Assembly (NCBI GenBank): GCA_046293175.1 | Contig: JBKBPM010000001.1 | Coordinates: forward strand, 171,446-235,445 | Direction: 5' to 3' | DNA: 64,000 nt | From: Minisyncoccia bacterium | GTDB taxonomy: Bacteria > Patescibacteriota > Minisyncoccia > Phycocordibacterales > UBA918 | Part shown: positions 8,364 to 64,000 of the stretch, in pieces | Numbering within the stretch: the stretch's first letter is position 1 | Layout of the letters: each line of letters opens with the position of its first letter | Notes under the pieces: generated by a model | Databases searched by the model: none | What the model was told of the DNA's origin: nothing | The model's input: only the letters and a program-made list of their open reading frames with translations | Program-made: the position numbers and the translations under genes

Positions 8364-10726
<2,363 letters not shown>

Positions 10727-25262: not shown

Positions 25263-26534
25263 ATGAAGAAAGCAAGACAAAAAAATATTATTGCTTTTGT
25301 GATGAGTCCGCATGAATCGTCGGTTACTAGTTTACGTGAGTATGAAAAGAAAAATAAAACTCAGTTTCGTTTGATGCTTATTTGGGATATTAATTATCCG
25401 TTGCCGCAAAATCTTGAACGATATGACGTAGTTGTGCAAATGGATTTTTCTAAGTCAATTCGGATAAGTGAAGCCCTTTTACCTTACCAAGATGAACTTC
25501 TTGCAATCACTTGTCGGAGTGAGGCTAATATTGCTCGATTTGCTAAAGTGATTCCTTTTGTTCCGTACTTACGTACTCCTACCACTGAATCACTCATCTG
25601 GGCAACGGATAAGTATGAAATGAGAAAGCGCTTTCGATTATTTGATCAAAAGATAACGCCAAAATTTACTCGAGTAAAAGATGTTTCAAAAAGTGAGCGA
25701 ACACGGGTAATTGCAAAAGTTGGTTTTCCGATGATTATTAAACCTACCAATTTGGCAGCGAGTTTATTTGTGTCTATTTGTTACCACGAGGATGAATTGG
25801 AAAAAGCACTCAAAACATGTTTCAAGAAGCTCGAAAAAGCCTATGCTCACGATAAGCGAATTGAACAACCAAAAGTAATTGCTGAGCAATACATGGAGGG
25901 AGATATGTATTCTATTGACTCGTATGTAAATAGTAGAGGTGCTGTATATCATTTACCCTTGGTGCGCGTAAAAACTGGCAAAGATATTGGTCACCAGGAC
26001 TTTTATGGCTATCTGCAGATGACCCCAACCATCCTTAAGGGTGAGACCGTGAAGCGGGCAGAAGCGGTAACTGAGACGGCCATTCATGCACTTGGTTTGC
26101 GAAGTACTACTGTGCATACTGAGTTGATGAAAATTGATAATGTGTGGAAAGTAATTGAAGTTGGTCCTCGGATGGGTGGGGCACGAGACAAGCTGTATCA
26201 TCTCAGTTGTGGTATTGATCATCCACTGAATGACGTATTTATTCGTATTCCGAAGAAACCAAAAATTCCGAAAAGATGTGTTGGCAATGCTGCATTTATG
26301 AAATGGTTTCTTCCTAAAGAGGGGATTATTACGGAAATGAAGGGTATTAAAAAAATTGAGCAATTAGAGTCATTCTACAAAATCGAAGTTAACAAAAAAA
26401 TTGGCGATAAGGCTACTTTTGCTCGACATGGAGGGCGGTCTATTTTTAATCTCTACATGCATAATGCCGATCGTGGAAAGTTGCTTGCTGACATTAGACG
26501 AGTTGAACAGATGGTTAAAATTAAAGTGAAATAA
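25263..26534 (+). CDS. ATP-grasp domain ligase (L-amino-acid-ligase/carboxylate-amine-ligase-like)
   Basis: ATP-grasp elements are present: ...VIAKVGFPMIIKPTNLAAS..., EQYMEGDMYSIDSYV and VIEVGPRMGG. It is transcribed divergently from the paralog pair and is AT-rich. Confidence 0.6.
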   Translation: MKKARQKNIIAFVMSPHESSVTSLREYEKKNKTQFRLMLIWDINYPLPQNLERYDVVVQMDFSKSIRISEALLPYQDELLAITCRSEANIARFAKVIPFVPYLRTPTTESLIWATDKYEMRKRFRLFDQKITPKFTRVKDVSKSERTRVIAKVGFPMIIKPTNLAASLFVSICYHEDELEKALKTCFKKLEKAYAHDKRIEQPKVIAEQYMEGDMYSIDSYVNSRGAVYHLPLVRVKTGKDIGHQDFYGYLQMTPTILKGETVKRAEAVTETAIHALGLRSTTVHTELMKIDNVWKVIEVGPRMGGARDKLYHLSCGIDHPLNDVFIRIPKKPKIPKRCVGNAAFMKWFLPKEGIITEMKGIKKIEQLESFYKIEVNKKIGDKATFARHGGRSIFNLYMHNADRGKLLADIRRVEQMVKIKVK

Positions 26535-31458: not shown

Positions 31459-31461
31459 TAT

Positions 31462-32664
31462 TTGGGTATGTATAATGCCAAACAAATTGTGATTTCAAGC
31501 ACAATAAGTGTCATTATTGTGCTTAGTATTTTGTATGTTTTTCGGTACCAACTTGCTGCTACTCTCGTAGTCTTGCCAGCGGTAAGTAATGACGTGGTTA
31601 CGAGCGATACATCTCCTGTTGCAGTTTCAATTCCTGAAATAATTGACCAAGTTGATGGTGCGGTTGTGTCAGTAGTTGCTACTAAAGACGTTCCCGTCTA
31701 TGAGCGTTATCTTGAGGAATATAATCCGTTTGGTGATTGGTTTGGAGGTTTTTCGATTCCGCGTATTCGAGAAAATGGAACTGAGTCACGTGAAGTTGGT
31801 GGTGGTACGGGTTTTATAGTTTCAGATGAAGGTCTGATTGTTACTAATCGACATGTCGTAGTAGATGAAGAAGCCTCCTATTCTGTCGTATTGGCAGATG
31901 GAAGTATTCATGGAGTACGGGTAAAAGCAAAAGACCCTGTCTTTGACATAGCACTACTCCAGTTTGAACAGTTGCCAAAGAACCCATTTCCACATCTTTC
32001 ATTTGGTGATTCTGATGCTGTTCGACGTGGTGATACCGTTATTGCGATTGGTAATGCCTTAGCAGAATTTGATAACTCCGTATCTGTCGGCATAATTTCT
32101 GGTATTGGGCGATCTATTACCGCCCGTGACGGTATGGGTATGACCGAACAACTTTCGAATGTTTTTCAAACTGATGCGGCGATTAACCCAGGAAACTCTG
32201 GTGGACCACTACTAAATAATCGAGGTGAGGTTATCGGAGTTAATGTTGCAGCGTCACTAGGTGCTGAAAATATTGGTTTTGCAATTCCATCGGACACCGT
32301 TAAACAAATTGTTGATTCAGTTACTACCTATGGCGAAATAAGACGACCATTCCTCGGTGTGCGTTATACAATGATAACTGAGCGTATGGCAAAGAAGAAC
32401 AACTTAGACATCACATACGGAGCCCTCGTGGCTCGGGGGGAGACAATGGAAGATTTAGCGGTGATGCCTGGATCTCCTGCAGATAAAGCTGGATTAAAAG
32501 AAAATGATATAATTACAGCGATTGATGATGTAACACTTAAGGATACTGATTTGGCCACCGTGTTGCGATCAAAAGCAGCTGACGCCACTATTGTTCTTAC
32601 TATCTTACGCCAAGGTAAAGAAGAAAAAATATCCGTCACATTAGAATCTGCACCACAAGAATAA
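31462..32664 (+). CDS. htrA: HtrA/DegP-family serine protease with a PDZ domain
   Basis: The catalytic triad elements VTNRHVV (His), DIALL (Asp) and GNSGGPL (Ser) are present, with a C-terminal PDZ domain. Confidence 0.85.
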   Translation: MGMYNAKQIVISSTISVIIVLSILYVFRYQLAATLVVLPAVSNDVVTSDTSPVAVSIPEIIDQVDGAVVSVVATKDVPVYERYLEEYNPFGDWFGGFSIPRIRENGTESREVGGGTGFIVSDEGLIVTNRHVVVDEEASYSVVLADGSIHGVRVKAKDPVFDIALLQFEQLPKNPFPHLSFGDSDAVRRGDTVIAIGNALAEFDNSVSVGIISGIGRSITARDGMGMTEQLSNVFQTDAAINPGNSGGPLLNNRGEVIGVNVAASLGAENIGFAIPSDTVKQIVDSVTTYGEIRRPFLGVRYTMITERMAKKNNLDITYGALVARGETMEDLAVMPGSPADKAGLKENDIITAIDDVTLKDTDLATVLRSKAADATIVLTILRQGKEEKISVTLESAPQE

Positions 32665-34393: not shown

Positions 34394-37159
34394 ATGCGCG
34401 AGGGAGTTCCTCAAGAAAAATTTACTAGTCCTGAAGAAGAGATTGCTTTTTTGCGTGAGCGCATTGCGCTCCGCGAACGGGAATTGCTCTCGCGTCAACC
34501 CGAAGCCGACCATAATGACTTTGAAGCGGTAGCAAAAACCGAACTGCGTGAGTATGGCATGTTTACCCCAAAGGTGATTCTTGATGGTGGTCGAGTGATG
34601 GATGGCCACGAGCTCGCGAGCCTGCAGGAACATATCGCAACTACTCGTACTCCGATCGAGGACATCCTCGTGCTCGCCGCCGAAAAGGGGATTCGCAACG
34701 CACTCTCCGTCCTTGAGAAGGTAAATAATCCGTACGTGATTGATGAAGTGCACCGCTCTCTGATCGAACAAATCAAAGGTGGTATGACGACACAGGACCT
34801 GAAAGAAGGTGTGCCACCATGGCAGATACTCCATATGACACTCTTTGAGGTGACCTTACCAGAGCTCAAAAATAGCCAAGATCGCGAGTATCAATTAGCC
34901 GACCTCATCGGCATGATGGAGCAGCTCTTTCGAGGACTGCGTATCATATCAAGCAAGGATAGCTCACAACATGTAGCGCTTGAGATTGCGGTGGCGGACA
35001 ATAGCGACGACATCGTGTTTTATGCAGCTGTACCAACGGAGTTTGTCACGCTTTTTGAAAAGCAGACGCTCTCGCTGTTTCCGCACGCAGTCCTCAGTGA
35101 ACAAGTCCACGATTACAACATTTTTGTCGATGGGGGAGTGAGTATCATCTCCGAGCTTGGACTTAAGAAGCATCCGATCTATCCGCTCCGGACTCATGAG
35201 GCGTTTTCCTCTGACCCGCTGGCAGTACTTCTTAATGCCTTTTCAAAAATTGAACGAGACGGTGGCGGAGCGGCCGTGCAGTTTCTCTTTCGTCATCCGA
35301 AACAATCGTATCGCAGTTCCTATGAAGAAATTGTAAAACGAGTCAAAAAAGGTATGAAGCCAGCGGAAGCGATTCGTCGTAGTACATTAACTGGTGAAAT
35401 GTTAGCCGGGGTCGGTGAACTCTTTTTCTCAAGTGCCAAACCAAAAGACAGTGTCCCACCTGAGCCAGATCAAGAAGCCCTTGAACTCTTCGCCGAAAAA
35501 CAGAAGGGCGATATTTTCGAAACCAATATCCGTATTGCCGTCTCAGCGCGTGATCAACAAAGAGCCAGAGATATTTTGCGTGAAATCGAAGCGACCTTTG
35601 GACAGTATACACATCTGACCGGTAATCAATTTACCTTCCAACATCGTACTGGCTCGAGTCTTCGTCTCGCCGAAAAAGCCTTTTCATTCCGTGAATTTAA
35701 CGGGAAAATCGCTTTGCCGCTCTCGGAGACTGAGCTCTCGACCATTATTCACTTCCCAGGTAACGGGATTGTTTCTTCACCACAGTTTAAGCAGGCACAC
35801 GCTGCTACGGCCGCCGCTCCAACTGATATGCCCACTACAGGCACACTTTTGGGTATCAACCGCCACCGCAATATCGAAAGGGCAATTTACATGACTGAGA
35901 AAGACCGCATGCGCCACTTCTACGTCATTGGTCAGACTGGTACCGGTAAGTCGGTCTTCCTGCAAAACCTCATTCATCAAGATATCGAGGCCGGCCACGG
36001 TGTCTGTATGATTGACCCGCATGGGACTGATATTCAAACAGTACTCGGCTCCATCCCGGCCCATCGTGAACAGGATGTTATCTACTTTGACCCCTCAAAT
36101 CTCGAGAACCCAATTGGACTTAATATGCTCGAGTACGACGAACGCAAGCCCGAGCAAAAGACCTTTGTCGTGAACGAACTCTTTTCAATCTTCCAAAAGC
36201 TTTACGGGGCAAACCCTGAAAGTATGGGGCCGATGTTCGAGCAATACTTCCGAAACGCTACCTTGCTCGTCATGGAGGATCCGGAGAGTGGTAACACGCT
36301 CATGGATATTAGTCGGGTGATGGCAGATGCCAAGTACCGCCGCATGAAACTCGAAAAGGCTAAGAATCCCGTCGTAGTCCAGTTCTGGCGCGAGATAGCA
36401 ACGAAGGCCGGGGGTGAGGCGTCACTTGAGAATATCGTACCATACATTGTATCTAAGTTCGATGTCTTTACGGCGAACGACTACATGCGACCAATTATTG
36501 GTCAGCAGAAGAGTGCGTTTAACTTCCGGCAGATTATGGACGAGCGGAAGATTCTTCTCGTTAATCTCTCAAAAGGTCGTCTTGGTGAAATCAATGCCAA
36601 CCTCATCGGTATGATTGTGGTGGGGAAGATTCTCATGGCCGCGTTGTCGCGCGTGGATAATCCAGCTATGGATTTTGCACCCTTTTTCCTCCACATCGAT
36701 GAGTTTCAAAATGTTTCGACTCCATCCATTGCGTCAATTCTCTCTGAAGCCCGTAAGTACAAGCTCTCGCTCACCATAGCCCACCAGTTCATCGCGCAGC
36801 TTGATGAAGATATTCGTGATGCGGTGTTTGGAAACGTGGGATCAATTGCCTCATTCCGGGTGGGCTCGGAAGATGCGACCTTCCTTGAAAAACAGTTTGC
36901 CCCGTCATTTGAAGCGAACGACCTTATGAACGTCCCGAACTGGAATGCCTTTGTCCGTATGCTTGCTAATGGCGTGCCCACTAAGCCTTTTAGTCTTGCC
37001 GCCATGCCGCCACCAGCGTCTAATCCTGATCGAGTTGAACTTCTCAAAGAGTTCAGTGCCAAACACTACGGCCGTCCGCGCCACGAGGTTGAGGCGGAGA
37101 TATCCGCACGTTACATCAAGGAAGTACCAGCACTTCCATCTCTTAGTGATATACTGTAG
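34394..37159 (+). CDS. VirB4/TraC/HerA-like P-loop ATPase (DUF87-type; type IV secretion-like)
   Basis: The Walker A region reads HFYVIGQTGTGKSVFL, followed by MIDPHGTD. The Walker B/RK region reads FFLHIDEFQNV...EARKYKLSLTIAHQ, as seen in VirB4/TraC/HerA ATPases. No TM helices are present. Confidence 0.5.
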   Translation: MREGVPQEKFTSPEEEIAFLRERIALRERELLSRQPEADHNDFEAVAKTELREYGMFTPKVILDGGRVMDGHELASLQEHIATTRTPIEDILVLAAEKGIRNALSVLEKVNNPYVIDEVHRSLIEQIKGGMTTQDLKEGVPPWQILHMTLFEVTLPELKNSQDREYQLADLIGMMEQLFRGLRIISSKDSSQHVALEIAVADNSDDIVFYAAVPTEFVTLFEKQTLSLFPHAVLSEQVHDYNIFVDGGVSIISELGLKKHPIYPLRTHEAFSSDPLAVLLNAFSKIERDGGGAAVQFLFRHPKQSYRSSYEEIVKRVKKGMKPAEAIRRSTLTGEMLAGVGELFFSSAKPKDSVPPEPDQEALELFAEKQKGDIFETNIRIAVSARDQQRARDILREIEATFGQYTHLTGNQFTFQHRTGSSLRLAEKAFSFREFNGKIALPLSETELSTIIHFPGNGIVSSPQFKQAHAATAAAPTDMPTTGTLLGINRHRNIERAIYMTEKDRMRHFYVIGQTGTGKSVFLQNLIHQDIEAGHGVCMIDPHGTDIQTVLGSIPAHREQDVIYFDPSNLENPIGLNMLEYDERKPEQKTFVVNELFSIFQKLYGANPESMGPMFEQYFRNATLLVMEDPESGNTLMDISRVMADAKYRRMKLEKAKNPVVVQFWREIATKAGGEASLENIVPYIVSKFDVFTANDYMRPIIGQQKSAFNFRQIMDERKILLVNLSKGRLGEINANLIGMIVVGKILMAALSRVDNPAMDFAPFFLHIDEFQNVSTPSIASILSEARKYKLSLTIAHQFIAQLDEDIRDAVFGNVGSIASFRVGSEDATFLEKQFAPSFEANDLMNVPNWNAFVRMLANGVPTKPFSLAAMPPPASNPDRVELLKEFSAKHYGRPRHEVEAEISARYIKEVPALPSLSDIL

Positions 37160-37164
37160 ACGCT

Positions 37165-40092
37165 ATGTCGCTTGAAGCAAAACAAAAGAATCAATTTGAA
37201 GATAAACCATCAGAGTATAGCGTTGCAACATTACGACAACAGGTGGTTGATTTGTCGTCAAAATTTCCTAATATCAAATATCGTGCAGTCGATAAGCAAG
37301 AAGCAATTCGCAATAATTTTGATCAACTTAAACGATTACTTGATCAACCAGACGAAACACTTCTGTCAGAAAGTGAATGTAACCTTGCTGAAGGATTACT
37401 CACTAATATAAAAACACTCCTCGATTTACCTGTAACAGAAGAGCATCGTAACCGAGTAAATAATCGACCTATTCCTGTTGTCTTGCAAGCAATGCCTGGC
37501 ACAATCAGAGAGTCTGATTCCGCAGCTACTGAAATAGTTCAAGAAGTTAAAGAATCATTCAGTGATACAGATGAATTAATCGATCTTTCTGACAGTGCGC
37601 AGTTTGAACAATATGATCAGGAACTCTTAGAGGCAACAAAAAAAGCCTTTTCAAATCAACAATTTTTTAAGGAACATAGACTTGTACAAGGTCTGCAGGC
37701 CCTCGGAACCATGCGAGTTATTTTTGCGCAATGGGATAGAACATTACAACAAATTAAATCAAATCAACAAAACAATAAAGAAGTCGATACCGGATTGTAT
37801 GAGAAACTGAATAAATATTACAATAAAATCCTCGATTTAATTGAGGTAGTTAATGGTGAAGTCACCACCTTCCGTGCAAACCAAGTAGCTGAAGATGAAA
37901 AAAGTTCGGATAGCAATCCAGTTCTCTCAGGTGATGCTCCTGCTGAAGAAGAATCAATAATTGCTAATGAGTCTATTGTCGCATCTGTATCACCCGCTGC
38001 AGTACCTTTGCCGACTCTTGTATTAACCAATGAAGAGAGGGTAACCGAAGAGTCAGGTGCTCCAGTTACTCTCAAACAGCCGCAAGAATCCACTCAGTCT
38101 CCTGAGGTGTCTGCAACCGAACAAATAAACAACAGCATTATTACCATCGCTGATAAATATAAGGCCGAACGTGAATCACTTGGTCGAGCAGCCGATGAGT
38201 TGTTGGCAAAGCCAAACCTGCCTGCCCACGTGCTACAGTCACTCACTTTTGCGAAGTCTGAAATGCTCGTGCATCTTGAACAACTTTCATATACTGATCC
38301 ACAGTACATGCAGCTTCGCGAACGAGTAAAGGAAGTCATTAACGCAGCACAGCAATTAACTGGCGAAGATATCACTATAGCACCAGCACCAAAAATTGAA
38401 GGAGCTAATCACCATCTCGCACCAGAGACAAGAAAGAAACTCTCAGAGAATTCAAAATTACGAGCTGCTTTGTTAGTTGCTATGGTAGCAATCGTGTCAC
38501 CAAATAATGTATCCGACTATAGTGATAATTTCGTAGTTGCTTCAGCTGACATGAGTTCACCACTCAGTCGAATGGGCGAACATGCGCAGTGGATCGGCGA
38601 TACTGCCAGTGGTATTTTGGCAGCTGCTGAGAAAGATGAGCCTAAAAAATTAGTTGTTGTTCGACCATACACAGGCGAAGAGGAAGTCTCTACGGTAACT
38701 GCTGAAGCTCCAACTGAGACGAGGATTACAAACATGAATTTTGCCTCCAGTGGAGAGACTCCACCCTCGGTTGTGGCTGAAGCTGGATCATTACCAGCGG
38801 TAGACCTCAGCGAAGACAATCTACCAAAAGTATCTGAAATAGTCGTAAATCGTTTTGGTTATGAACCAACCGCTCTTGAAGTTGACACTCGTGAGTCAAT
38901 GGTAACGGCTGCTGATACTTCAGTATCCGAGCCAACAATAACAAAAATAGCTGAACCTGATCCCAAGAGCCCAGCCTACCAAGAAAGTATCGCTCCGACT
39001 GAATCAGTAGCTAGTGGTAATACTGTCGTAGAAGTTTTACAAGGTAATGAAGCAACGTACCCAGACCGAGCTATCGATCCACTCCTCGCGGCTGTTGATG
39101 CAACTGGTATTCCTCTGGTACTCGCGAACAAACTCCGCGCCGAAGAGAAAGAAGCGTTCCTGTCTGACGCCAACCGCCTTCGGGCCGCTGGGGTAGGTAG
39201 TGGTCAAAAGAATGTTACTTTCCCAGGCGAAAAAATCAACTACAGTGACCCGGTAGCAAGACTCGATCAGCGTTTTAATGAGTATCGTCAATACTTAAGT
39301 GTACCCCATACAGAAGTAGCGGTTGAAGGAGACAATCTCACTAAACTCGTGGAGAAGTCATACGCACGTGATCTCGCCGTACTCTCTCCAGCTGATCGCT
39401 TGCCGGTAGTAGAGGAAGCTCTGGCCGCGTATCTTGCAACACCTGGAGCCCTCGAAAATCTCAAGCTTAAGGATAAAGATACTGTTCCAATTGCTGCGGT
39501 CGTGCCACTTCAGGTGTTGGCCCGCTATCTCGCTGATGCGGTGGCTAAAAAAGTTCTCACCGCAAATGAGTCTGGTAGCGCTTCGGAAGTATTGGTAGAT
39601 GATAGTTCAACTGCAGAAACGATTGCAGTAGATGTAGATGCCACTTTTAATGCATCTGAAGAATCAGGTAGTGCTTCAAAAGTTATTGAAGACAGGGGTG
39701 AGCCCGGTGAAGTAACGTCTCCGGAAGAATATCCGGGCGGTGTTATAGCGTTTAGCCAGGCCTATAATCAATTGCTCGAATCGTTTGGTATTGCGATTAA
39801 AGCTCCGGCAATGTTTGATAGCTGGTTTACCGTTAATCGGGCAGAATATAATAATCGAGAATTGCTCGGTATGACCGTAGGGGAGATAACCACTATTATG
39901 ATGCAAGATCCGGTAGAGGTGATGCGTGAGCTCAATGCACGCAAGATAAGTCCTGAAGCCGCTAATGCAGTCTATCAGCTTGTCATTGAAGCACGCAAAA
40001 ATGGTTTGGCTCCGTATGCAACTGACTCGACAATCACACTTGAAGAAGTGATCAAACGAAAGGTGCTCGCCGATGCATCAACTAATAAGTAA
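37165..40092 (+). CDS. large acidic hypothetical protein (975 aa)
   Basis: A long uninterrupted ORF with protein-like composition and low complexity in parts. No family was recognised. Confidence 0.4.
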   Translation: MSLEAKQKNQFEDKPSEYSVATLRQQVVDLSSKFPNIKYRAVDKQEAIRNNFDQLKRLLDQPDETLLSESECNLAEGLLTNIKTLLDLPVTEEHRNRVNNRPIPVVLQAMPGTIRESDSAATEIVQEVKESFSDTDELIDLSDSAQFEQYDQELLEATKKAFSNQQFFKEHRLVQGLQALGTMRVIFAQWDRTLQQIKSNQQNNKEVDTGLYEKLNKYYNKILDLIEVVNGEVTTFRANQVAEDEKSSDSNPVLSGDAPAEEESIIANESIVASVSPAAVPLPTLVLTNEERVTEESGAPVTLKQPQESTQSPEVSATEQINNSIITIADKYKAERESLGRAADELLAKPNLPAHVLQSLTFAKSEMLVHLEQLSYTDPQYMQLRERVKEVINAAQQLTGEDITIAPAPKIEGANHHLAPETRKKLSENSKLRAALLVAMVAIVSPNNVSDYSDNFVVASADMSSPLSRMGEHAQWIGDTASGILAAAEKDEPKKLVVVRPYTGEEEVSTVTAEAPTETRITNMNFASSGETPPSVVAEAGSLPAVDLSEDNLPKVSEIVVNRFGYEPTALEVDTRESMVTAADTSVSEPTITKIAEPDPKSPAYQESIAPTESVASGNTVVEVLQGNEATYPDRAIDPLLAAVDATGIPLVLANKLRAEEKEAFLSDANRLRAAGVGSGQKNVTFPGEKINYSDPVARLDQRFNEYRQYLSVPHTEVAVEGDNLTKLVEKSYARDLAVLSPADRLPVVEEALAAYLATPGALENLKLKDKDTVPIAAVVPLQVLARYLADAVAKKVLTANESGSASEVLVDDSSTAETIAVDVDATFNASEESGSASKVIEDRGEPGEVTSPEEYPGGVIAFSQAYNQLLESFGIAIKAPAMFDSWFTVNRAEYNNRELLGMTVGEITTIMMQDPVEVMRELNARKISPEAANAVYQLVIEARKNGLAPYATDSTITLEEVIKRKVLADASTNK

Positions 40093-54776: not shown

Positions 54777-57700
54777 ATGAATTTTATTTTCATGAGGAGG
54801 TTTCATTCATTTTCTAATATGCAAAGTCGTTATTCTTTGGTTGCGGTAGCAAGGACAGTGTTAGTATCGTTTCTAACACTGTCTTTTTTGTTAGTGTCGA
54901 GTATTCCTGCCGAAGTTTTTGCTGAGGAAAGTGCTGGTACAACCGAGATATCAAATGCTACCACTCCACCCGCGGACACCCCTGTTAGTGAAATCGAGAA
55001 TACGAATCCTGAAACTGTAACACCAAATGATGATACAGAGCCTCCAGTTGAAGAATCTGCAGAACAGCTTACAGAAGTTTCTGATCCCGAAGCAGTAGAT
55101 ACAGAAGAGGATCCTGAAAAAGCACCCGTAGAAGAATTAGAGCCAGAATCAATGGCAGCCATGGGTGCAGGTGGTGCTTCTGGGTCTGGTGACGCTTCAC
55201 CACTCAAGACTTCTTTAGTTGATTCAACCAGCGGCTCATTTCAAACAAATTATGGCATTGTGGTTCCGCCTGGTCGAAACGGCATGCAACCGAACCTGAG
55301 TCTGGGGTACGACGGGGGAGCAAACAGTCAAACAAGTGTATTTGGGTACGGTTGGGATATTAGTATCCCATACATTTCACGTATGAATAAAACTGGTAGT
55401 GAAAATCTCTACGCCACTTCCAGTTATTTCTACTCGTCACTTTCTGGCGAATTGGTTCCTACTGGAGTAACTAATGAATATCGTGCTCGAGTCGAATCAG
55501 GAAGTTTCCTAAAATATGTATATTCCAATAGTGTTTGGACAGTAACAGACAAGTCTGGCCGGACGTATACATTTGGCTCAGCGAGTACTACCAGGCAAGA
55601 TAACCCTAGTGATAGTAACCAGATATACCGCTGGTATATTGCCGAAGAGCGTGACACTAATAATAATGCAATCAGTTACAGTTACTATAAAAATGCAGGG
55701 CAGATTTATCCTGATACCATTTATTACACCAAAAATGGTGCAGATAATGGTATTTTTTCAGTACAGTTTGAACGTGAATCACGGACAGATGTCGTAACAT
55801 CGTACCAAGCTCGTTTTGCTGTGAAAAGTAACTATCGAATTAAAAAGATAGTTGCTTATGTTGATGGTGTGGCTGCACGAAGCTATGCGCTTGCTTATAC
55901 AAATGGTGATAACCAAAAACGTTCACTTCTTTCAACAATTACTGAATCTGGCACTGAAGGAAGTGTTACAACTACGCGGCTAGCTCAATCATTCGAATAC
56001 AAAAATACTAGCACTGAGGGTTGGACTTCAACATCAACATGGTCTACTCCCGAACCATTTTCAAGCAATAGTCTTGATACAGGGTTGCGACTAGTTGACG
56101 TAAACGGTGACAGTTACCAAGATTTAGTTCGCTTCTACGGCACTCAAGGTGGTCAAGAATTTAAATCAATTTATATTAATAACGGATTAAATGGTTGGAC
56201 TAGTACAACGACTTGGAACTGGTCAGATATGAACTTATGGTTTTCAGTGGAAGGTTCTACACAAAATTCACGTAATGATTATGGAACAAGATTCCTTGAT
56301 GTTAATGGTGATGGTTTAACCGATGCTATTACTGGATTTGATAACCTTGATGGTTGGAGTGACTACAAGGTTGTCTATATTAATAATGGAAGCGGCTGGG
56401 CAAGTTCAACCTGGGTTTTGCCAGTGTTTATTACAAAAAAATTAGGCGGTAGCTCAACTTATGACTTGGGTGTACGAACAGGAGATATTAATGGTGATAG
56501 ATTGCCAGATATAGTCGTATCTTACGTAAATGGTTCTGGTGCTACAAGTCAAGAAGTTTACTTAAATAATGGTCAAAATGGGTGGAGCCAAACAACATCA
56601 TGGGTAGTGCCTGAGCCATTTACAAATTGTGCAACTTGTACAAATCCTGGTCTAGATTTAGGAACACACCTAATTGATGTTAATGGTGATGGTCTCGATG
56701 ATGTTGTTAGAAGCTACTCAACATCCGGAACAAGCACCAATAAAGTTTATCTCAATACTGGTACAAATTGGGTACTGGACAGCAGTGTCCAGTTACCTAC
56801 TTACTTTGTTATGACAGGCGACTCTGGCCTACGTTGGGTAGAAGTAAATGGTGATGGTTTGATTGATCTTGTTAGAAACGCAACTACATCTAGAGTAACT
56901 TATTTGAATAGTGGTACAGGTTGGACAAGCCTTGGTCAGCTTCCACCAACTCAAATGCCATTTATTACAACATCAGGTGATAGTGGTGTTCGTGCCGTTG
57001 ATATTGACGGAGATGGTCAATCAGATCTAATTGGAAATACTGGCAGCACTACTTATCTTAATAGTCGAGGTTTTGGTGATTCTCTAACACAAATCACTTT
57101 TCCTCAAGGTGGTAAAATTATAGCTTCATATCAGGGTTCTGCTGAATATCGAAGCGGAAGTCAAATCTTAAACCCAAAAATTCCCTACACCTTCACAACA
57201 GTCTCACAGATACAATATGACTCCAATAATGATGCTATATGGACTGAATCATATCTATACGAAGATGGATTCTATCACTATGCGAGTACGAGTTTTCGTG
57301 ACCGTACTTTTTCAGGTTTTGGCAAAATAACCAAAACCAGTCCTCGTGCTAAGACAGTATCGTATTACCACCAGAATAATGACACTAATAGTAGCAATGG
57401 TGAGACGACAGATTCATACGCCAAGATTGGGCTTGAGTATAAAACGTTCGTCAACGACCTTGCTGGCAATAATTATATTACAAATGTGACAAAATGGTCT
57501 GAATCAGCATTGCCCGGTGGCGCGTCATATATAAGCCAACAGTCACAGGCAACACTATCGCATGATGGCGATAGTGATCATCGGGACATGGCTGTTGAAT
57601 ATAGCTACGATACCAATAATGGTAATCTGCTACAAAAAATTGAATATGGCGAAGTTACTGGAGCTACAGATGGCACCTTTACTGATACCGGCACGGACAA

Positions 57701-60700
57701 ATATACTACCGCATTTACATACGGCGCCAGCTCAACAAATCCGTTATTTACACTAACGATTCAAGCTTCAACTACAGACCAGCAAAACGTCCTAACAAGA
57801 TTAACTAAATACTATTACGATAATAGCACTTTTGGCAGCGTGACTAAAGGTAACCTTACCAAACAAGAAGACTGGGCCACTTCAACCACATATAGTACCC
57901 GTCAATGGGAATATAATACTTTCGGCCTAGTAGGTACGACAACTGATCCACGCGGTAATGTATCAAGTGTGCGATATGACTCTCATAATTTATATCCCTC
58001 ACTCGCTAAAAATGCCCTTGGACACATAACGACCTCAACTTATGATTATTCAAACGGACAGGTCAAAACAAATATTGATGCTAATAGCGCACTGTATACT
58101 TTCAATTATGATGGCCTTGATAGACTGCTTGAAGAGTATGTGCCTGATCCAAACAATGGTAGCTCCACTGTGCTTAAAAATGCATACACCTATTTCGACA
58201 CCAGTTTGCCATATCGTGTTCACCAGTCACGATACTTAAACCAGTATTTAACAGTAGATTCTAATACATATCTCGATGGATTTGGACAAGTCATTCAAAC
58301 TCGTCAAGATATGGAACAGTTCAATAAGTATGCGGTAACTGACTTTGTGTACGATGATGGTGTGTTGATTCGTGAATCCGTCCCGTACCAAGCAAATGGA
58401 TCTGGCTATAGTCCGTCAACGAGCAATACAAACCGACTACGTACTTATAGTTATGATGCGCTGGATCGAAAAATTACCATAGCTGATATGCGTGGTACGA
58501 GCACCCTCGCATACGATCAATGGCAGACGCTTGCGACTGATCCATTGTCTCGTACAAAAAAGACAAATAATGATGCGTACGGAAACCTCGTGAGTGTAAT
58601 TGAACGCAATAGTGGTGTTGATTACACGACAACGTATACCTATGACTACGGAGGTAAACTGACCAGCCTCACAGACGCCCTTAGTAATGTACGTAAATTC
58701 ACTTACGATGGATTAGGTCGACGTCTCTATGCAGAAGATCTTCATGTGGCGACCAGTAGTTCGTTTGGTGTTTGGCGCTATCAATACGACCTGGCAGGTA
58801 ATCTCGGTACTTCTACCAACCCGCGAGGACAAATTGTAGCGTATACGTACGATGCACTTAATCGAACATTGACCGAAAATGCAGCTAGTTCAACCGGAGT
58901 TGAAACTTCTTATACCTACGACTCCTGTACTAAGGGTGTTGGTAAACTTTGTACAGTTGTAGTTGCATTTGCCACTACAACCTATGGTTACAACAACCTT
59001 GGTTCGATGGCAACTGAAACCAAACAAATTCGCGGAACAACCTACACAACCAGTTACCAGTATGACCGACAAGGTAATCAGACAATGGTGCAGTACCCTG
59101 ACAATTCCGTAGTTCGCAATACCTATAATAATGCTGGCTTACTCGATAAAGTTGAACAAAAAGAAAATGGCGGACTATTCAAGAACGTTGTTACAGCTCT
59201 AGATTACAGTCCTGCCCAGAAAGTGACCCTAGAAGCTATAGCGAACGGAGCAACTACTACCAAAACCTACGATTCAATACATCGTCTTACTAATATTTTG
59301 ACCACAACCACTGGAACCACTACACCAAGTCAATGTCCTAGTTATATTCTTGGATCCGGTCTTGATACTAACCTGATATCGTATTGGAACCATAATGAGT
59401 ATTCTTCTGGTTCAGGCGCAGTTACTAGGTTTGATAGTAAAGGAACTAATCACCTAACAGATTTCAACACAACTCTGTCGACTGTAGGTATGATTGATAC
59501 TGCGTCAGATTTGGAAGTTGCAAATACAGAACGACTTACTATTACAGATGCGGCACAGACAGGTCTTGACACTCAAAATGACATGACCTTCGCAACTTGG
59601 CTTAAGTTTGAGAGTCTGCCTGGTACAAACGGACGTATGTACGTAGTCCAAAAAGAAGATATCTTCAAATTTGCACCAGATTTCGATGTAAATGGTACTG
59701 ACTACTTGCGATTGTATCTCCGTGATGCATCAGGTTACTATCACAATTCGGTTTCGTGGGTGCCATTCGTTGATACATGGTATCATGTTGCATTTACCAG
59801 AAATCAAACAACCGGAGCCCTTAAATTCTATGTGAATGGTCAACAGCAGGGTTCAACAATAATGACGGGTAGAACAGCATCTCTGTTAAATTCTGTTGAA
59901 GATTTCAATATCGGTGCTAATCCTGGAGAATTTGATGGTGCGGTTGATGAGACAGCAATTTGGTCACGCGTACTGACTGATACTGAAATCGCCTGTCTCT
60001 ATAATAATGGTGGTGGCATTTCATACAGCTTGGGTGGAATAGGTGGTGGCGGTGAAGCAATGAGACTTCTTGCCATGTCTGAGTCTGAACAAATACTGAA
60101 ATCCGCCGACTATTCGGGATCTGATACACAAGAAATAACTGTCAAAACCGATATAACTGCTTCTTCGACAATTGCAGCCTATGATGTATATAAACAGCAA
60201 CTTAACTCAGCTGATGCAAGTGAAAAGGCAACTCTAAAAGGCCAGATGATTGCTGAAAAAGTAATATCAGGCAGACGAGTTGACCGAAAAGAGTTTAAGA
60301 TAGATTTGTTTGGTGTTGAGCCAATAGATGGAGGACTACAGGTGTACCTTCGCGCCTTTGATGCCCAAGGCAATCAACTTGGCTTTGGTAAAGATGGCAC
60401 GATTGATATTGAACGCTTCAAGATATACAATCCGCCAATTAGCGTGCCTGATGGTACTTACCGAGATGAAGAAATTGAAAAACTTAGTGGAGGTACCCAA
60501 ATTATTAAGTCCCCTAACTTTAAAGATGATCCTGAGGAAGCTTTATATCAGGTATTAGAACAAACAATCAAACTTACTGGTAAGAGTGGTACAAAAATCG
60601 TCCCTAAAAAAATCGGTCGAACCACTAGTGTGTTCTATCCAGATGCGAACCCAGAGAGTTCTTCAGTTGACGGATGGACTCAGTATGAAAGTACACAAAT

Positions 60701-62804
60701 TTCGTGGTCAGCTATTCGCACGGCAAATGGAACTGGATCTGGAGATACTGATGCAACACGATACGTATTGGCAGCTGCCGCTGGTACAGCGACTAGTACA
60801 TTTAATAACCTTCGTCGTGGAATCTTCGTCTTTAACACTGCACCGATTGCAGACACCGATTACATTAGTGGAGCGACACTCTCATTTGTTGCTACAGCAA
60901 AAGGTGATCATGATGCAATAAATGAACGCTTTGCGAACCTGACGAGTGCGTCAACTGCATCAAATGTCGCGATTGCTGCTTCTGATTATCAGTCTCAGTC
61001 GGTACATACCACAAAACTTTCTACGGATAAAAGCATCAAATACGATATAGTTGCTGATAGTAGCACCTATACTGACTGGACACTAAATAGCGATGGTTTG
61101 GCTAACATCAGTACCAGTTCGGTTTCTAAGTTTGGTCTAAGATTTGTTGAAGATATTAGCAGTACTACCATGCCATGGAACTCTGGTTACAATTACGGCA
61201 TATCGATCAGACTGGCAGATACAGCCAATACTTCACTTGATCCAAAACTAGTAGTTGAACACAGTGCTACTTCATCACCAGTAGCAACAACCACCACCAT
61301 TCAAAACATCGCCTACACCTACGATGCGGTGGATAATATTACGCAGATTACTGACACATCAACAACTTTAGCAGCGAAGACTGTACAATTTACTTATGAT
61401 GACCTTAACCGCCTCACGAGAGCCTCAACTACAGTTGCTTCTTCTACACCATTCCTAGAGCAGTACACATACAATGCGATTGGTAATCTACTGACCAAAA
61501 CTGGACAGGGGACATACAGCTACGCTGGTACTGGCTTCGCGAACCCACACGCCCCAACCACCATTGGTACTTCCACCCTCACCTACGACCAAAATGGCAA
61601 CCTCGCCTCATACAACGGTGTGACGTATACCAGTAACTACAAAAACCAACTCACCACCCTCACCAAAAACAGCACCACCACCAAGTACACCTACGACCAC
61701 CAGGGCCAGCGCCTCGAAAAAGCCCGGGGCACCGGTACTACCACCTACGCCTCTGGCGGGTACGAAGTAGCACCAACCGGCGTCACCAAATACATCTACG
61801 CTGGTGGGGAACTAGTAGCCACCATCGCTGGTATAGGAACTACTACTACTACTACTACCTCCTATATCCATCGGGACCACCTATCCTCTACGAATGTAAC
61901 TACGAACCAAAGTGGAGGAGTATCTACCGTCTTAGACTACTACCCGTACGGCTCCACTCGTATCGAGACTGGCACACCACCTCAGAAACAATATATTGGC
62001 CAATACGATGACTCTGAATCAGATCTGGCGTACCTTAATGCGAGGTACTACGACCCAACACGTGGCCAATTTACCTCACAAGACCCCATGCACTGGGCGA
62101 TACCTGCCAATCTCATCGTCGACCCACAATTACAGAACTCGTATGGGTATGCCAAAAATAATCCGATTATCTATAAGGATCCAAATGGTGATATTCCTGT
62201 ACTAGTTGCTCTGTTTGGGGGCGCTGCACTGGCTGGTGCGATTGGTCAAGGTATCGAAGATATTGCGTCAGGTCAACTTTCTGGTTGGCAAGATTATGCA
62301 GGTGCAGCTGCTGGTGGTATGACAGGAATGGCTGCAGCACTAACAACGAAAAATCCTTTTGCCATTGGTGGAGTAACCTCGGGTAGTGAACAATTGTATA
62401 CAAATCTTCTTACAGGTGAAGAGGCAATGAGTGATGTGTTTTCTGAATCAGGTAAAGGCATAATTTTTGGTGGATTTATTGATTTGCGTATCCCTCTACT
62501 GTCTAAAGGTGCTAATAATATTTCAGCACGTACTCAAAGCATTATCACGAAGGTATCAAATGGTACAGTGTCAAATGCTTCTTTAAAAACTGTAAGAAAT
62601 GTCAGTATTTCTCAGTCTGTAAACAGTACCGCTCAATCTACATACAACGGTGTTGAGCATCGTTTATCAAACTCACAAGTAAAAAATGCGTCAAACAATA
62701 TAGAAAAGGCAACCAAAGCTTTTCAGAGCGGTAATTATACTGTAAGTCTCCGTTATTTGGAGAAAGCCAATCAGAATTTAAACAGTAACAAAAAGAAAAA
62801 ATAA
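54777..62804 (+). CDS. Rhs/YD-repeat polymorphic toxin (2675 aa) with a signal peptide, SpvB-like N-terminal region, FG-GAP-like repeats, YD repeats interrupted by a LamG-like domain, an Rhs core terminus and a Gly-zipper C-terminal domain
   Basis: The SpvB-like region reads ...GRNGMQPNLSLGYDGGANSQTSVFGYGWDISIPYISR. Six or more VDVNGDGLxD repeats span 56.09-57.04 kb. Many YTYDxxGNL YD repeats follow. A LamG-like block (...WYHVAFTRNQTTGALKFYVNGQQQG...DETAIWSRVLTDTEI) sits at about 59.33-60.02 kb. The core terminus reads ...LAYLNARYYDPTRGQFTSQDPM. The C-terminal ~235 aa are Gly/Ala-rich (GGAALAGAIGQGI...GAAAGGMTGMAAAL). Confidence 0.85.
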   Translation: MNFIFMRRFHSFSNMQSRYSLVAVARTVLVSFLTLSFLLVSSIPAEVFAEESAGTTEISNATTPPADTPVSEIENTNPETVTPNDDTEPPVEESAEQLTEVSDPEAVDTEEDPEKAPVEELEPESMAAMGAGGASGSGDASPLKTSLVDSTSGSFQTNYGIVVPPGRNGMQPNLSLGYDGGANSQTSVFGYGWDISIPYISRMNKTGSENLYATSSYFYSSLSGELVPTGVTNEYRARVESGSFLKYVYSNSVWTVTDKSGRTYTFGSASTTRQDNPSDSNQIYRWYIAEERDTNNNAISYSYYKNAGQIYPDTIYYTKNGADNGIFSVQFERESRTDVVTSYQARFAVKSNYRIKKIVAYVDGVAARSYALAYTNGDNQKRSLLSTITESGTEGSVTTTRLAQSFEYKNTSTEGWTSTSTWSTPEPFSSNSLDTGLRLVDVNGDSYQDLVRFYGTQGGQEFKSIYINNGLNGWTSTTTWNWSDMNLWFSVEGSTQNSRNDYGTRFLDVNGDGLTDAITGFDNLDGWSDYKVVYINNGSGWASSTWVLPVFITKKLGGSSTYDLGVRTGDINGDRLPDIVVSYVNGSGATSQEVYLNNGQNGWSQTTSWVVPEPFTNCATCTNPGLDLGTHLIDVNGDGLDDVVRSYSTSGTSTNKVYLNTGTNWVLDSSVQLPTYFVMTGDSGLRWVEVNGDGLIDLVRNATTSRVTYLNSGTGWTSLGQLPPTQMPFITTSGDSGVRAVDIDGDGQSDLIGNTGSTTYLNSRGFGDSLTQITFPQGGKIIASYQGSAEYRSGSQILNPKIPYTFTTVSQIQYDSNNDAIWTESYLYEDGFYHYASTSFRDRTFSGFGKITKTSPRAKTVSYYHQNNDTNSSNGETTDSYAKIGLEYKTFVNDLAGNNYITNVTKWSESALPGGASYISQQSQATLSHDGDSDHRDMAVEYSYDTNNGNLLQKIEYGEVTGATDGTFTDTGTDKYTTAFTYGASSTNPLFTLTIQASTTDQQNVLTRLTKYYYDNSTFGSVTKGNLTKQEDWATSTTYSTRQWEYNTFGLVGTTTDPRGNVSSVRYDSHNLYPSLAKNALGHITTSTYDYSNGQVKTNIDANSALYTFNYDGLDRLLEEYVPDPNNGSSTVLKNAYTYFDTSLPYRVHQSRYLNQYLTVDSNTYLDGFGQVIQTRQDMEQFNKYAVTDFVYDDGVLIRESVPYQANGSGYSPSTSNTNRLRTYSYDALDRKITIADMRGTSTLAYDQWQTLATDPLSRTKKTNNDAYGNLVSVIERNSGVDYTTTYTYDYGGKLTSLTDALSNVRKFTYDGLGRRLYAEDLHVATSSSFGVWRYQYDLAGNLGTSTNPRGQIVAYTYDALNRTLTENAASSTGVETSYTYDSCTKGVGKLCTVVVAFATTTYGYNNLGSMATETKQIRGTTYTTSYQYDRQGNQTMVQYPDNSVVRNTYNNAGLLDKVEQKENGGLFKNVVTALDYSPAQKVTLEAIANGATTTKTYDSIHRLTNILTTTTGTTTPSQCPSYILGSGLDTNLISYWNHNEYSSGSGAVTRFDSKGTNHLTDFNTTLSTVGMIDTASDLEVANTERLTITDAAQTGLDTQNDMTFATWLKFESLPGTNGRMYVVQKEDIFKFAPDFDVNGTDYLRLYLRDASGYYHNSVSWVPFVDTWYHVAFTRNQTTGALKFYVNGQQQGSTIMTGRTASLLNSVEDFNIGANPGEFDGAVDETAIWSRVLTDTEIACLYNNGGGISYSLGGIGGGGEAMRLLAMSESEQILKSADYSGSDTQEITVKTDITASSTIAAYDVYKQQLNSADASEKATLKGQMIAEKVISGRRVDRKEFKIDLFGVEPIDGGLQVYLRAFDAQGNQLGFGKDGTIDIERFKIYNPPISVPDGTYRDEEIEKLSGGTQIIKSPNFKDDPEEALYQVLEQTIKLTGKSGTKIVPKKIGRTTSVFYPDANPESSSVDGWTQYESTQISWSAIRTANGTGSGDTDATRYVLAAAAGTATSTFNNLRRGIFVFNTAPIADTDYISGATLSFVATAKGDHDAINERFANLTSASTASNVAIAASDYQSQSVHTTKLSTDKSIKYDIVADSSTYTDWTLNSDGLANISTSSVSKFGLRFVEDISSTTMPWNSGYNYGISIRLADTANTSLDPKLVVEHSATSSPVATTTTIQNIAYTYDAVDNITQITDTSTTLAAKTVQFTYDDLNRLTRASTTVASSTPFLEQYTYNAIGNLLTKTGQGTYSYAGTGFANPHAPTTIGTSTLTYDQNGNLASYNGVTYTSNYKNQLTTLTKNSTTTKYTYDHQGQRLEKARGTGTTTYASGGYEVAPTGVTKYIYAGGELVATIAGIGTTTTTTTSYIHRDHLSSTNVTTNQSGGVSTVLDYYPYGSTRIETGTPPQKQYIGQYDDSESDLAYLNARYYDPTRGQFTSQDPMHWAIPANLIVDPQLQNSYGYAKNNPIIYKDPNGDIPVLVALFGGAALAGAIGQGIEDIASGQLSGWQDYAGAAAGGMTGMAAALTTKNPFAIGGVTSGSEQLYTNLLTGEEAMSDVFSESGKGIIFGGFIDLRIPLLSKGANNISARTQSIITKVSNGTVSNASLKTVRNVSISQSVNSTAQSTYNGVEHRLSNSQVKNASNNIEKATKAFQSGNYTVSLRYLEKANQNLNSNKKKK

Positions 62805-62805
62805 T

Positions 62806-63360
62806 ATGTTGAACTATATTCCACGAAATTGGGTGTGGTATGTTGTTGCCTTAATATTGTTTGGTCCATATATTCTGATTAACGTTATGGAAAACGATAT
62901 GCTAGCTAGAATAATTGGTTTAGGTTTTATTCCAAATGGCGTAGTCTTAATATTACTTTATACAATTCTTAGTAAAGGATATGATTGGATTCAACCAACA
63001 GAGTGGTTTGAAAAAAAACTTCAAAAAGTAAATAAAGGAAAAATACTCATCTTCAGTAAAATATTTCTTTTTGGAGTATTAGTTCTTTTTCTACCCTTGT
63101 CATTAGGCTATTTCAAAGATGTTGTTTTGGTAAAAGATGGTTTAGCCCCAATGACATTTATTGCAACAATTTCTGATATACGAGTTGGTAAAGGTGCTCT
63201 AAATCTATATATTTATTTTGATGATCAGAATGAGAAAATGTCTGCTTATTATTTCTCCCGCAACACCTTTGAAGAAGGGTACACATATAAGTTCTGGTAC
63301 TTGCCAAATACTCGTCAGATAGTTAAAGCAGAACTCATATCCACCAACGAAACACAATGA
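62806..63360 (+). CDS. small multi-TM membrane protein, candidate immunity protein for the Rhs C-terminal domain
   Basis: A 184-aa protein with three TM helices begins 2 nt after the rhs stop. It is very AT-rich, and its stop overlaps the start of the downstream fragment (ATGA). Confidence 0.45.
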   Translation: MLNYIPRNWVWYVVALILFGPYILINVMENDMLARIIGLGFIPNGVVLILLYTILSKGYDWIQPTEWFEKKLQKVNKGKILIFSKIFLFGVLVLFLPLSLGYFKDVVLVKDGLAPMTFIATISDIRVGKGALNLYIYFDDQNEKMSAYYFSRNTFEEGYTYKFWYLPNTRQIVKAELISTNETQ

Positions 63361-63716
63361 CTACCCTCCAGAAAAATAGTACCACCACCTCATACACCTA
63401 CGACCACCTCGGCCAGCGTCTCGAAAAAGCCCGTGGTACCGGTACTACCACGTATGTGGGCGGTGGGTACGAAGTAGCACCAACTGGAGTCACCAAGTAT
63501 ATCTACGCTGGTGGGGAACTGGTAGCCACCATCGCTGGTATAGGAACTACTACTACCTCCTATATCCATCGGGACCACCTATCCTCTACGAATGTAACTA
63601 CGAACCAAAGTGGAGGAGTATCTACCGTCTTAGACTACTACCCGTACGGCTCCACTTGTATCGATATGGGTATACACCGAGTTAGCGGAACGAAATATTT
63701 AATTTATCAAATTTAA
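63357..63716 (+). pseudogene. orphan Rhs core fragment (119 aa) homologous to residues ~2290-2390 of the main Rhs protein
   Basis: TTLQKNSTTTSYTYDHLGQRLEKARGTGTTTYVGGGYEVAPTGVTKYIYAGGELVATIAGIGTTTTSYIHRDHLSSTNVTTNQSGGVSTVLDYYPYGST is near-identical to the main gene. The fragment diverges and terminates before the DPxG core end, with no toxin domain. Confidence 0.6.
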
Positions 63717-63726
63717 ACAGACTCCA

Positions 63727-63752
63727 AAAACCCACCAATTGGTGGTTTTTTA
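63727..63752 (+). terminator. Rho-independent terminator
   Basis: AAAACCCACCAATTGGTGGTTTTTT contains a palindromic stem followed by a T-run. Confidence 0.6.
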
Positions 63753-64000
63753 TTTTGTATCCAATAATCCCCAAAATGTGTGCACAAGTGGCTTGTGGGT
63801 GGGATGAAGTGGTGTATAGTGTAGTTGTGGTGGGAGATAGTGGTATAGAACGAAAGTTCTAGACAGATCCACAACTATCTCTGACAGCAGTCAGCATCGC
63901 TCCACCGATGGTGGCTGGTGTCAGGGATGGAAGTGGAATAGCTATCAAGACAACATTATGTTAATCGGGGAATATCGCCACACACTTGATCCTAAGAAAC

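Follow-up and report, generated by a model that had tools for sequence, protein, structure and literature searches.

Both Rhs toxin/immunity cassettes and pore formers carried by Rhs proteins are already well known, and RHS/YD proteins with immunity have also been described in the Candidate Phyla Radiation (CPR), where a Saccharibacteria genome encodes such an RHS/YD protein, of 2487 aa, next to an immunity gene (PMC6031116). The Rhs-borne C-terminal toxin of Tse5 (Tse5-CT) produces ion-selective pores, and the cognate immunity protein, Tsi5, resides in the membrane with two transmembrane (TM) segments (PMC9637101). By analogy, Tse5-CT/Tsi5 appears to be the closest characterised counterpart of the locus reported here, which lies in a stretch of 64,000 nucleotides (termed the window) of contig JBKBPM010000001.1, from a metagenome-assembled genome of Candidatus Paceibacteria (CPR). 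The locus comprises an rhs gene followed directly by a gene for a small membrane protein, and we consider it very likely to be an Rhs toxin/immunity cassette. It shows the features of the Rhs class, namely RHS/YD repeats (PF05593 RHS_repeat, E 6.1e-14, 6 stretches; TIGR01643 YD_repeat_2x, E 9.6e-10), a core ending in DPxG, a tip that varies on a conserved core, and a downstream gene that moves with the tip. Taken as a whole, the data are probably best explained by a polymorphic Rhs toxin locus whose variable 3' end encodes a membrane-attacking tip and its immunity protein. The principal features, in window coordinates, are as follows.

54777..62804, + strand: rhs gene, 2675 aa, from the list of open reading frames (ORFs) and the translation (stop codon at 62802-62804)
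61938..62189, + strand: Rhs-associated core domain, residues 2388-2471 (TIGR03696, E 1.5e-16, profile positions 1-75 of 76)
62190..62801, + strand: C-terminal toxin tip of 204 aa, a member of a glycine-zipper family that is associated with Rhs proteins and has no name, from the homologue search, the position of DPxG and an AlphaFold2 model
62806..63360, + strand: putative immunity gene, 184 aa, beginning 1 nt past the rhs stop codon

The tip resembles that of Tse5 (RhsP1, PA2684) of Pseudomonas aeruginosa in being short and following a DPxG core end (149 aa in Tse5, 204 aa here), in having no predicted enzyme function, and in being helical with a propensity for membrane insertion, both features being predictions for the window tip (PMC9637101, PMC10684867). 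Both systems include a small integral-membrane immunity protein, with two TM segments in Tsi5 and three here. In contrast, Tse5 has a PAAR-like N-terminus and is delivered into diderm prey by the H1 type VI secretion system (H1-T6SS), whereas the protein in the window combines a signal-like N-terminus with SpvB/FG-GAP/TcdB-like domains and is encoded in a CPR genome; furthermore, pores have been demonstrated for Tse5-CT, whereas they are proposed here. A search of the PDB with the tip profile gave no match to Tse5 at E<=10, chain 8cp6_B (1121 aa) being the cage without the tip; the Tse5 toxin is unresolved in the structure (PMC11630599).

Similarities were also noted with the EC93-type CdiA-CT ionophores of contact-dependent growth inhibition in Escherichia coli, which are polymorphic tips predicted to be helical bundles, some with a putative glycine zipper, that are neutralised by very hydrophobic membrane proteins, CdiI, and exchanged as pairs with them (PMC11630599). 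However, CdiA-CTs rely on CdiB/CdiA two-partner secretion and a VENN motif, in place of the Rhs shell and DPxG motif seen here, and on an N-terminal entry domain that uses inner-membrane proteins such as AcrB, of which none is evident in our protein. There was no sequence or family link between CdiA-CTs and members of the tip family in Pfam or NCBIfam. EsxX, of the T7SS (type VII secretion system) found in Gram-positive bacteria, likewise has a C-terminal glycine-zipper toxin that acts on a monoderm-type membrane and a membrane-associated immunity protein (PMC12744356). It differs in its LXG domain and T7SSb export, as opposed to the Rhs shell here, and the libraries searched revealed no homology. 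TspA and TelE are further glycine-zipper membrane-depolarising T7SS toxins. Bacillus subtilis WapA and Photorhabdus TcB-TcC are YD-repeat toxins, and the WapA tips are nucleases with soluble immunity proteins. The protein in the window shares with WapA and Tc BC a YD/Rhs shell with a Sec signal (a signal-like segment here), SpvB and TcdB-like domains, a tip that would be enclosed after the core, and an immunity gene (putative here) directly downstream. Tc toxins depend on a TcA translocator, of which the neighbouring genes examined gave no sign, in a search that was not exhaustive.

As judged from the sequences, the comparison of strains showed directly that cassettes are exchanged at the locus upstream of mraZ. 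The parts of the window and the related loci that enter this comparison are the following.

63357..63716, + strand: truncated orphan Rhs core fragment, 119 codons, without core end or toxin, from the translation and the repeat with the main core
63958..64000, + strand: start of mraZ, the conserved right flank of the polymorphic locus (MLIGEYRHTLDPKK, which matches the MraZ gene of L001)
L001: 183-aa gene only, behind another tip and beside mraZ, that is, an orphan immunity gene
L002: core with a different tip, 140-aa ORF, orphan core fragment fused to tip P0006, and 183-aa membrane homologue
L003: related tip end, 183-aa gene and core fragment, contiguous, with 75% DNA identity to window positions 62787-63640
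L017/L018: core end DPSGL, deaminase-like tip, 166-aa ORF, identical truncated fragment (ending in IETGIHRVSGTKYLIYQI and a stop codon), and mraZ

The core DNA was 74-83% identical between strains, with differing tips. In L002, the orphan pair shares 50% (tip P0006) and 53% (immunity protein) identity with the window. The same locus in L017/L018 lacks the 184-aa family of the window, and its truncated fragment, which is followed by mraZ in L017, has the truncation junction of the window fragment (IETG, then IHRVSGTKYLIYQI and a stop codon). To the right of the locus, window positions 63747-64000 are 85% identical in DNA to L001. The orphan fragment, annotated at NCBI as hypothetical protein MFN3692676.1 on a contig of 676 kb, begins with an ATG that overlaps the stop codon of the immunity gene (ATGA), and it is part of a repeat in which positions 61643-61977 recur at 63350-63675 with 85-95% identity. 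The main and orphan copies of the core are 95% identical over 61848-61977 and 85% identical upstream; over 61848-61977 they share substitutions that other strains lack, a pattern that indicates probable conversion within the genome. The orphan modules of L001, L002, and L003 begin at the equivalent of ~61640. A preliminary description of the window had already seen an exchanged toxin/immunity module on an Rhs scaffold, a view that the strain comparison (L001-L003, L017/L018) bears out, although its argument from GC content was half right and its coordinates were off. Strain-level swapping of cassettes is thus seen in Candidatus Paceibacteria, CPR bacteria whose genomes are tiny and whose antagonism between cells is poorly understood.

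The L001 stretch (positions 1-3900; GCA_013565675.1, JACCDV010372827.1) carries UbiA, an orphan-type core fragment with a different tip, a small ORF, the 183-aa homologue, and mraZ. It contains no Rhs body, and the locus can therefore exist as orphans only. The tip of L017 (positions 1-871) and L018 (positions 2-1265) has HAE...CxxC motifs and a sub-threshold match to the OTT_1508 deaminase family (E 2.5e-4); the 166-aa ORF behind it, which has no Pfam match, is presumably its immunity gene.

The association of the tip with a membrane protein extends well beyond these strains. In 13 of 15 distinct loci, namely the window, L002, L003, L004 (identical to L006), L008, L009, and L010-L016, the ORF following the tip encodes a protein of 150-306 aa with two to three or more TM segments, at a gap of -22 to +9 nt; the exceptions are L005 and L007. 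The tips of L004 (=L006), L008, and L009 are more distant (32-39% identical), and each has, 0-6 nt behind it, a partner of 184-189 aa from the same family as the window's. At L015, a 168-aa ORF overlaps the tip gene by 14 nt, and at L012 a longer membrane protein follows the tip. A different partner, of 150-166 aa with about two TM segments and a soluble domain, was found in the diderm loci L010, L011, L013, L014, and L016. If about one bacterial gene in four codes for a membrane protein, membrane pairing in 13 of 15 loci is far from chance, although these loci are not phylogenetically independent. The diderm partners follow the pattern ...F+..(I/L)....(F/I).YR........ and have no Pfam match.

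The 184-aa protein is the candidate cognate immunity protein, with a putative protective role. Its gene had been described as encoding a membrane protein, in agreement with the three TM segments seen here both by Kyte-Doolittle hydropathy (residues 8-30, 35-55, and 78-100) and in an AlphaFold2 model, which contains helices at 9-27, 31-55, and 77-110 and five strands (predicted local distance difference test score [pLDDT] 64.6, from five sequences only). The C-terminus forms a predicted beta domain of ~80 aa. In 10 homologues, the N-terminus and loop 2 hold the clusters of Lys and Arg, whereas loop 1 is acidic; this positive-inside pattern therefore predicts that the N-terminus is inside and the beta domain outside. 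Four homologues in other genomes are 51-57% identical, and family members follow related tips in L002, L003, L004, L008, and L009. D105, T160, Y161, and P167 are invariant in the family, and BLASTP of the window protein against that of L004 gave an E-value of 3e-4. Neither Pfam nor NCBIfam yielded a family for the immunity protein or for eight downstream partners, and Foldseek returned only weak OB-fold-like matches to the immunity model (E 0.2). NCBI annotates the gene as 157 aa (MFN3692675.1), from an internal Met start that leaves out window positions 62806-62886 and thereby TM segment 1. The ATG at 62806 is supported because the homologues keep the N-terminus MLNYIPRNWGWY..LFGPY; the 184-aa form is also present in a Logan assembly.

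The features of the tip itself are given below.

62199..62270, + strand: tip helix 1, residues 4-27 (VLVALFGGAALAGAIGQGIEDIAS), from Kyte-Doolittle hydropathy and AlphaFold2
62301..62327, + strand: glycine zipper G38xxxG42xxxG46 in helix 2, after the conserved W33..Y36, from alignment A2
62502..62594, + strand: conserved polar motif region, tip residues 105-135 (the window reads GANNISARTQSIITKVSNGTVSNASLKT), from alignments A1 and A2

An exhaustive HMMER search of 1.84 billion cluster representatives (50% clustering) identified 103 relatives of the tip at E<=1e-3, 14 of them at E<=1e-10; P0071 and P0072 were set aside as spurious, leaving 101 family members. The domain is C-terminal in all matches, with a median of 31 residues beyond it, and a DPxG-type motif lies <=12 aa upstream in 83 of the 92 matches that are long enough, most of the other nine having degenerate versions. 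As far as genome contigs assign them, the hosts are Paceibacteria, other Patescibacteria, Saccharibacteria, Acidobacteriota, Kiritimatiellae, Verrucomicrobiales, Puniceicoccaceae, Melioribacteraceae, and Nitrospira. Other searches found little or nothing: a word-indexed protein search gave no match with the tip alone and only 4 proteins, none of them named, with the family profile, and tblastn against plasmids gave no match for the tip or a diderm relative. Pfam yielded no match to named families such as Gly-zipper_Omp/OmpA/YMGG, Bacteriocin_IIc, and Ntox/Tox for the window tip (E<=0.1) or 52 relatives (E<=0.01), nor did NCBIfam for the window tip and 31 family members. Across the Pfam and NCBIfam searches, those with the immunity protein and the downstream partners included, the one sub-threshold match, to Bflower_2 (E 0.003; 17.8 bits, the cut-off being 38), was discounted. 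In both databases, the tip matched no enzyme family, in line with the preference of the preliminary description for a membrane-inserting toxin over an enzyme.

That description had also portrayed the domain as Gly/Ala-rich and packed through GxxxG motifs, and indeed the first 70 residues contain 40% Gly+Ala and the G38xxxG42xxxG46 zipper. Over the first ~50 residues, the family consensus is ..GA..G..GQ...D...G..S.W..Y.GAA.GGA.GG. Y36, G42, and G43 never vary in the alignment of 31 family members (A2), in which G38 is at least 90% conserved. The polar motif has the consensus G[RK]NS..A.T.Q..TK..NGTI.N.S..T..K, in which G107, K121, and T134 (A2) and T120 (A1) are at least 90% conserved, and a variable tail follows; past residue ~140 the sequence is not conserved. 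Helix 1 reaches a Kyte-Doolittle maximum of 1.85 over 19 residues and is the sole segment of the tip hydrophobic enough to span a membrane; its value is at least 1.4 in 25 of the 31 family members. The three other Gly/Ala-rich helices (2-4) are of moderate hydropathy (0.3-0.5), and the remainder is polar. The AlphaFold2 model of the tip, built from 52 sequences, is all-helical with eight helices (pLDDT 81.7, predicted template modelling score 0.68), and Foldseek comparison of this model with the PDB and BFVD returned no match better than E 0.48 and no TM-score above 0.4. The only similarity to a solved protein was a weak match of the tip profile in the PDB to the Gly-rich TM helices of NDUFA11 (mitochondrial complex I, Tim17-type; E 0.005, 19.8 bits); it covers only tip residues 8-77 (window positions 62211-62420), with the common pattern ..GA..G...........Y...GG..GG, and is probably compositional. 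The Tim17 family of Pfam matched neither the tip nor its relatives, and the PDB profile match to HlyE was not significant (E 1.1).

The core ends in NPIIYKDPNG, with DPNG at nt 62178-62189 and its G at residue 2471 (TIGR03696). The core terminus had previously been placed at 62047-62094 and the C-terminal domain assigned 235 aa; the junction does lie at the core boundary, but 62047-62094 encodes YYDPTRGQFTSQDPMH, a motif internal to the core domain, and with the core ending at residue 2471 the length is corrected to 204 aa. The translation contains the candidate core protease aspartates D2449 and D2468, and from what is known of Rhs, TcC, and Tse5 (PMC9637101, PMC10684867) a site of autoproteolysis would lie at or just after DPNG.

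The base composition changes at this junction, albeit not in the manner first described. A fall in GC to about one-third past the core had been reported, and the lowest-GC stretch is indeed here: against a window mean of 0.468, the immunity gene, with 0.319, is the lowest 550-nt stretch of the 64 kb, and the 550-nt windows as low as 0.319 amount to 0.47%, all at 62511-62801. However, the first 210 nt of the tip (62190-62399) have a total GC of 0.48, and 0.35 is reached only from ~62400. The total stays at 0.48 in the early tip because Gly/Ala codons are GC-rich at positions 1 and 2 (GC1 0.67 and GC2 0.56 in the 5' part). The GC content at third codon positions (GC3) gives a clearer view, for which one further feature has to be introduced.

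61452..62154, + strand: GC3-rich 3' core block, delimited by GC3 change points at both ends and shared with the orphan modules

The GC3 is 0.30 in the Rhs body, 0.56 in this block, 0.24 in the tip, 0.26 in the immunity gene, and 0.52 in the orphan fragment, ordinary genes of the window having values of ~0.45-0.55. Maximum-likelihood change points were located at 61452 (0.31 to 0.56) and 62154 (0.56 to 0.24), with a log-likelihood ratio of 21 each, and the latter is within ~30 nt of DPNG. There is a genuine compositional break at the core-tip junction. The profile across the junction is thus not uniform, breaking sharply at ~62154 in GC3, but the contrast is inflated by the GC-rich block, in which 40-codon windows reach a GC3 of 0.7-0.8. 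The compositional oddity is this block, not the cassette, the Rhs body (6.7 kb) being equally AT-rich; low GC cannot single out the cassette because synonymous sites are AT-rich throughout that body. The GC3 pattern could be explained by a separate origin of the Rhs body or by GC-biased gene conversion in the recombination arm; as the sole part of the locus with a host-like or higher GC3, the 0.7-kb arm would fit GC-biased conversion at a hot spot of cassette swapping. The case carries a caution for composition scans, in that Gly/Ala codons hid the break in total GC, whereas GC3 and strain comparison are the right test. Other genes of the window with a low GC3 (0.28-0.34) lie within 23669-26531, 31459-32661, and 37150-40089; they are two Pfam-less ORFs beside a gene resembling ATP-grasp L-amino-acid ligases, an HtrA-like trypsin/PDZ protease, and a 980-aa Pfam-less ORF.

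Considering these data together, we propose the following mechanism. The 2675-aa protein would be exported by Sec through its N-terminal signal-like segment (hydrophobic residues 19-49 in the Kyte-Doolittle profile), and its SpvB/FG-GAP/TcdB-like and RHS-repeat parts would form a shell around the last 204 residues. The aspartyl protease of the core would cut at or just after DPNG (residue 2471), and the all-helical tip could then be released onto a neighbouring cell, where helix 1 and the glycine-zipper helices would insert into the cytoplasmic membrane. Oligomerisation of the tip may create an ion-conducting pore and collapse the membrane potential, whereas the producer would be protected by the presumably co-transcribed 184-aa protein, which may bind the tip in the membrane or at its outer face. 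The ~0.7-kb GC-rich 3' core block would act as a homology arm that allows cassettes, each consisting of core end, tip, and immunity gene, to be swapped and to accumulate in a stack of orphans. If true, possession of a weapon that depolarises membranes, together with a gene for self-immunity, implies that like cells compete and do not only exploit hosts.

We lean, by a modest degree, towards a pore former or ionophore as the nature of the toxin. The proposal of an ionophoric, membrane-inserting toxin in the preliminary description fits the helical model, the helix of TM grade, the zipper, the lack of an enzyme match, and the membrane partner in 13 of 15 loci, but the polar motif allows an enzyme. 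A broader and more tentative suggestion, to which we give slightly less than even weight, is that tip and partner are founding examples of an undescribed, multi-phylum family of Rhs-borne glycine-zipper membrane toxins with two seemingly unrelated immunity families, whose pore would be built with a Tim17/NDUFA11-like Gly-rich hairpin. The hosts named for this family (~100 representatives) are Patescibacteria/CPR, Acidobacteriota, Verrucomicrobiota, Kiritimatiellae, Nitrospira, and Ignavibacteria-like bacteria, and the immunity types are three TM segments with a beta domain in CPR versus two TM segments with a soluble domain in diderms. What is new is that a sizeable tip family and at least one immunity family without a match in Pfam, NCBIfam, or PDB can now be named.

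Several observations weigh against a pore-forming tip with a membrane immunity protein. The strongest conservation outside the zipper is in the polar motif, G[RK]NS..TK..NGTI, which would suit an active or binding site, and the window tip reads GANN where most members read GRNS. Only one helix of the tip is clearly hydrophobic enough to cross a membrane, and residues 100-204 of the window tip are polar, with an abundance of Ser, Asn, and Lys. The TM calls come from a simple hydropathy scan and not from a trained predictor, and a pore action of the tip family would be derived from sequence, model, and analogy. The residue after DPNG is Asp instead of the usual Leu or Trp (class pattern PxxxxDPxG), which leaves the exact point of cleavage uncertain. 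Finally, no small membrane ORF follows the tip at L005 and L007, whose immunity may be encoded elsewhere or whose toxins may be aimed at other species. At L005 (positions 9664-9747), the gene for a TIG/Big_5 protein of 3723 aa lies 83 nt behind that of P0014, whose genome also has SurA, and at L007 (positions 1338-1441) the tip is followed by another signal-bearing YD-repeat protein.

One alternative, which we judge unlikely, is that the tip is an enzyme anchored at the outer face of the target membrane, whose substrate would be a lipid head group or, as for TelC and colicin M, an envelope precursor linked to a lipid. Helix 1 and the Gly-rich helices would then be the anchor, and D24, Y36, R108/N109/S110, T120, K121, N124, and T134 would be the candidate acting residues. 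The polar nature of the C-terminal half and the strong conservation of the motif across phyla agree with such an enzyme, as does the predicted outward orientation of the soluble domain of the immunity protein, which is also the arrangement for extracytoplasmic toxins targeting lipid II (TelC/TipC, PMC12419801). However, nothing significant was found in Pfam, NCBIfam, the PDB profile search, or Foldseek (PDB, BFVD), R108 is not invariant and is absent from the window copy, and no His/Glu/Asp triad of the Lipocone type (PMC12419801) is conserved. Lipocone proteins are defined by a four-helix core with an active-site His in H2, Glu in H3, and Asp in H4 (PMC12419801); membership of that superfamily was rejected, A2 containing no conserved His or Glu and its conserved polar positions being D24, Y36, K121, and T134. 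The consistent presence of a membrane partner argues against a cytoplasmic target and does not separate a pore from an outer-face enzyme.

The same partner bears on the idea that the zipper half is a translocation module only and that residues ~100-204 are a cytoplasmic toxin, as in the T6SS DNase Tde1, whose glycine zipper is needed for translocation and not for toxicity (PMC10240207). In favour of this idea, the tip divides in two, one half being hydrophobic and rich in Gly and the other polar and conserved. Cytoplasm-acting toxins, however, normally have soluble cytoplasmic immunity proteins, whereas here the partner is a membrane protein in 13 of 15 loci and from two immunity families; moreover, no family of nucleases, deaminases, or ADP-ribosyltransferases matched the polar half, and conservation ceases past residue ~140. 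We thus hold this idea to be quite improbable. Hardly tenable is the view that there is no exchanged cassette, low GC reflecting amino-acid composition and the 184-aa ORF being an unrelated housekeeping membrane protein: third positions of the Rhs body are as AT-rich as those of the tip and L001 has the 183-aa homologue near mraZ without a glycine-zipper tip, but GC3, which is largely independent of amino acids, drops from 0.56 to 0.24 at the boundary, and the membrane protein travels with the tip as the L002 orphan module away from the main gene end, follows distant tip relatives at unrelated positions (L004, L008, L009), and is missing at this locus in L017/L018, where another tip and immunity pair is found.

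As to the transcription of the proposed toxin/immunity cassette, there is no convincing terminator at the rhs-immunity junction, the sole match (62821-62838) being weak and within the immunity gene. A terminator-like structure lies further downstream.

63732..63752, + strand: terminator-like hairpin at 63732-63745 (CCACCAATTGGTGG) followed by a T run, from a consensus scan and direct reading

The hairpin at 63732 closes the rhs-immunity-orphan unit. Promoter-like matches in the region are not clearly in excess (10 versus 5.6 +/- 2.5 in shuffled sequences), and the tip and the immunity gene have no second copy within the 64-kb window. In the body of the Rhs protein, Pfam matches are to SpvB, FG-GAP_3, TcdB_toxin_midN, RHS_repeat, and Laminin_G_3. 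The Laminin_G_3 (concanavalin-like) insert is in the middle of the protein (residues 1595-1739, window positions 59560-59994) and is followed by ~500 residues without a Pfam match (~60000-61400) and then by the last YD repeats. The insert region may be a receptor-binding insert; relative P0009 also contains Laminin_G_3, together with a match to Toxin_R_bind_N.

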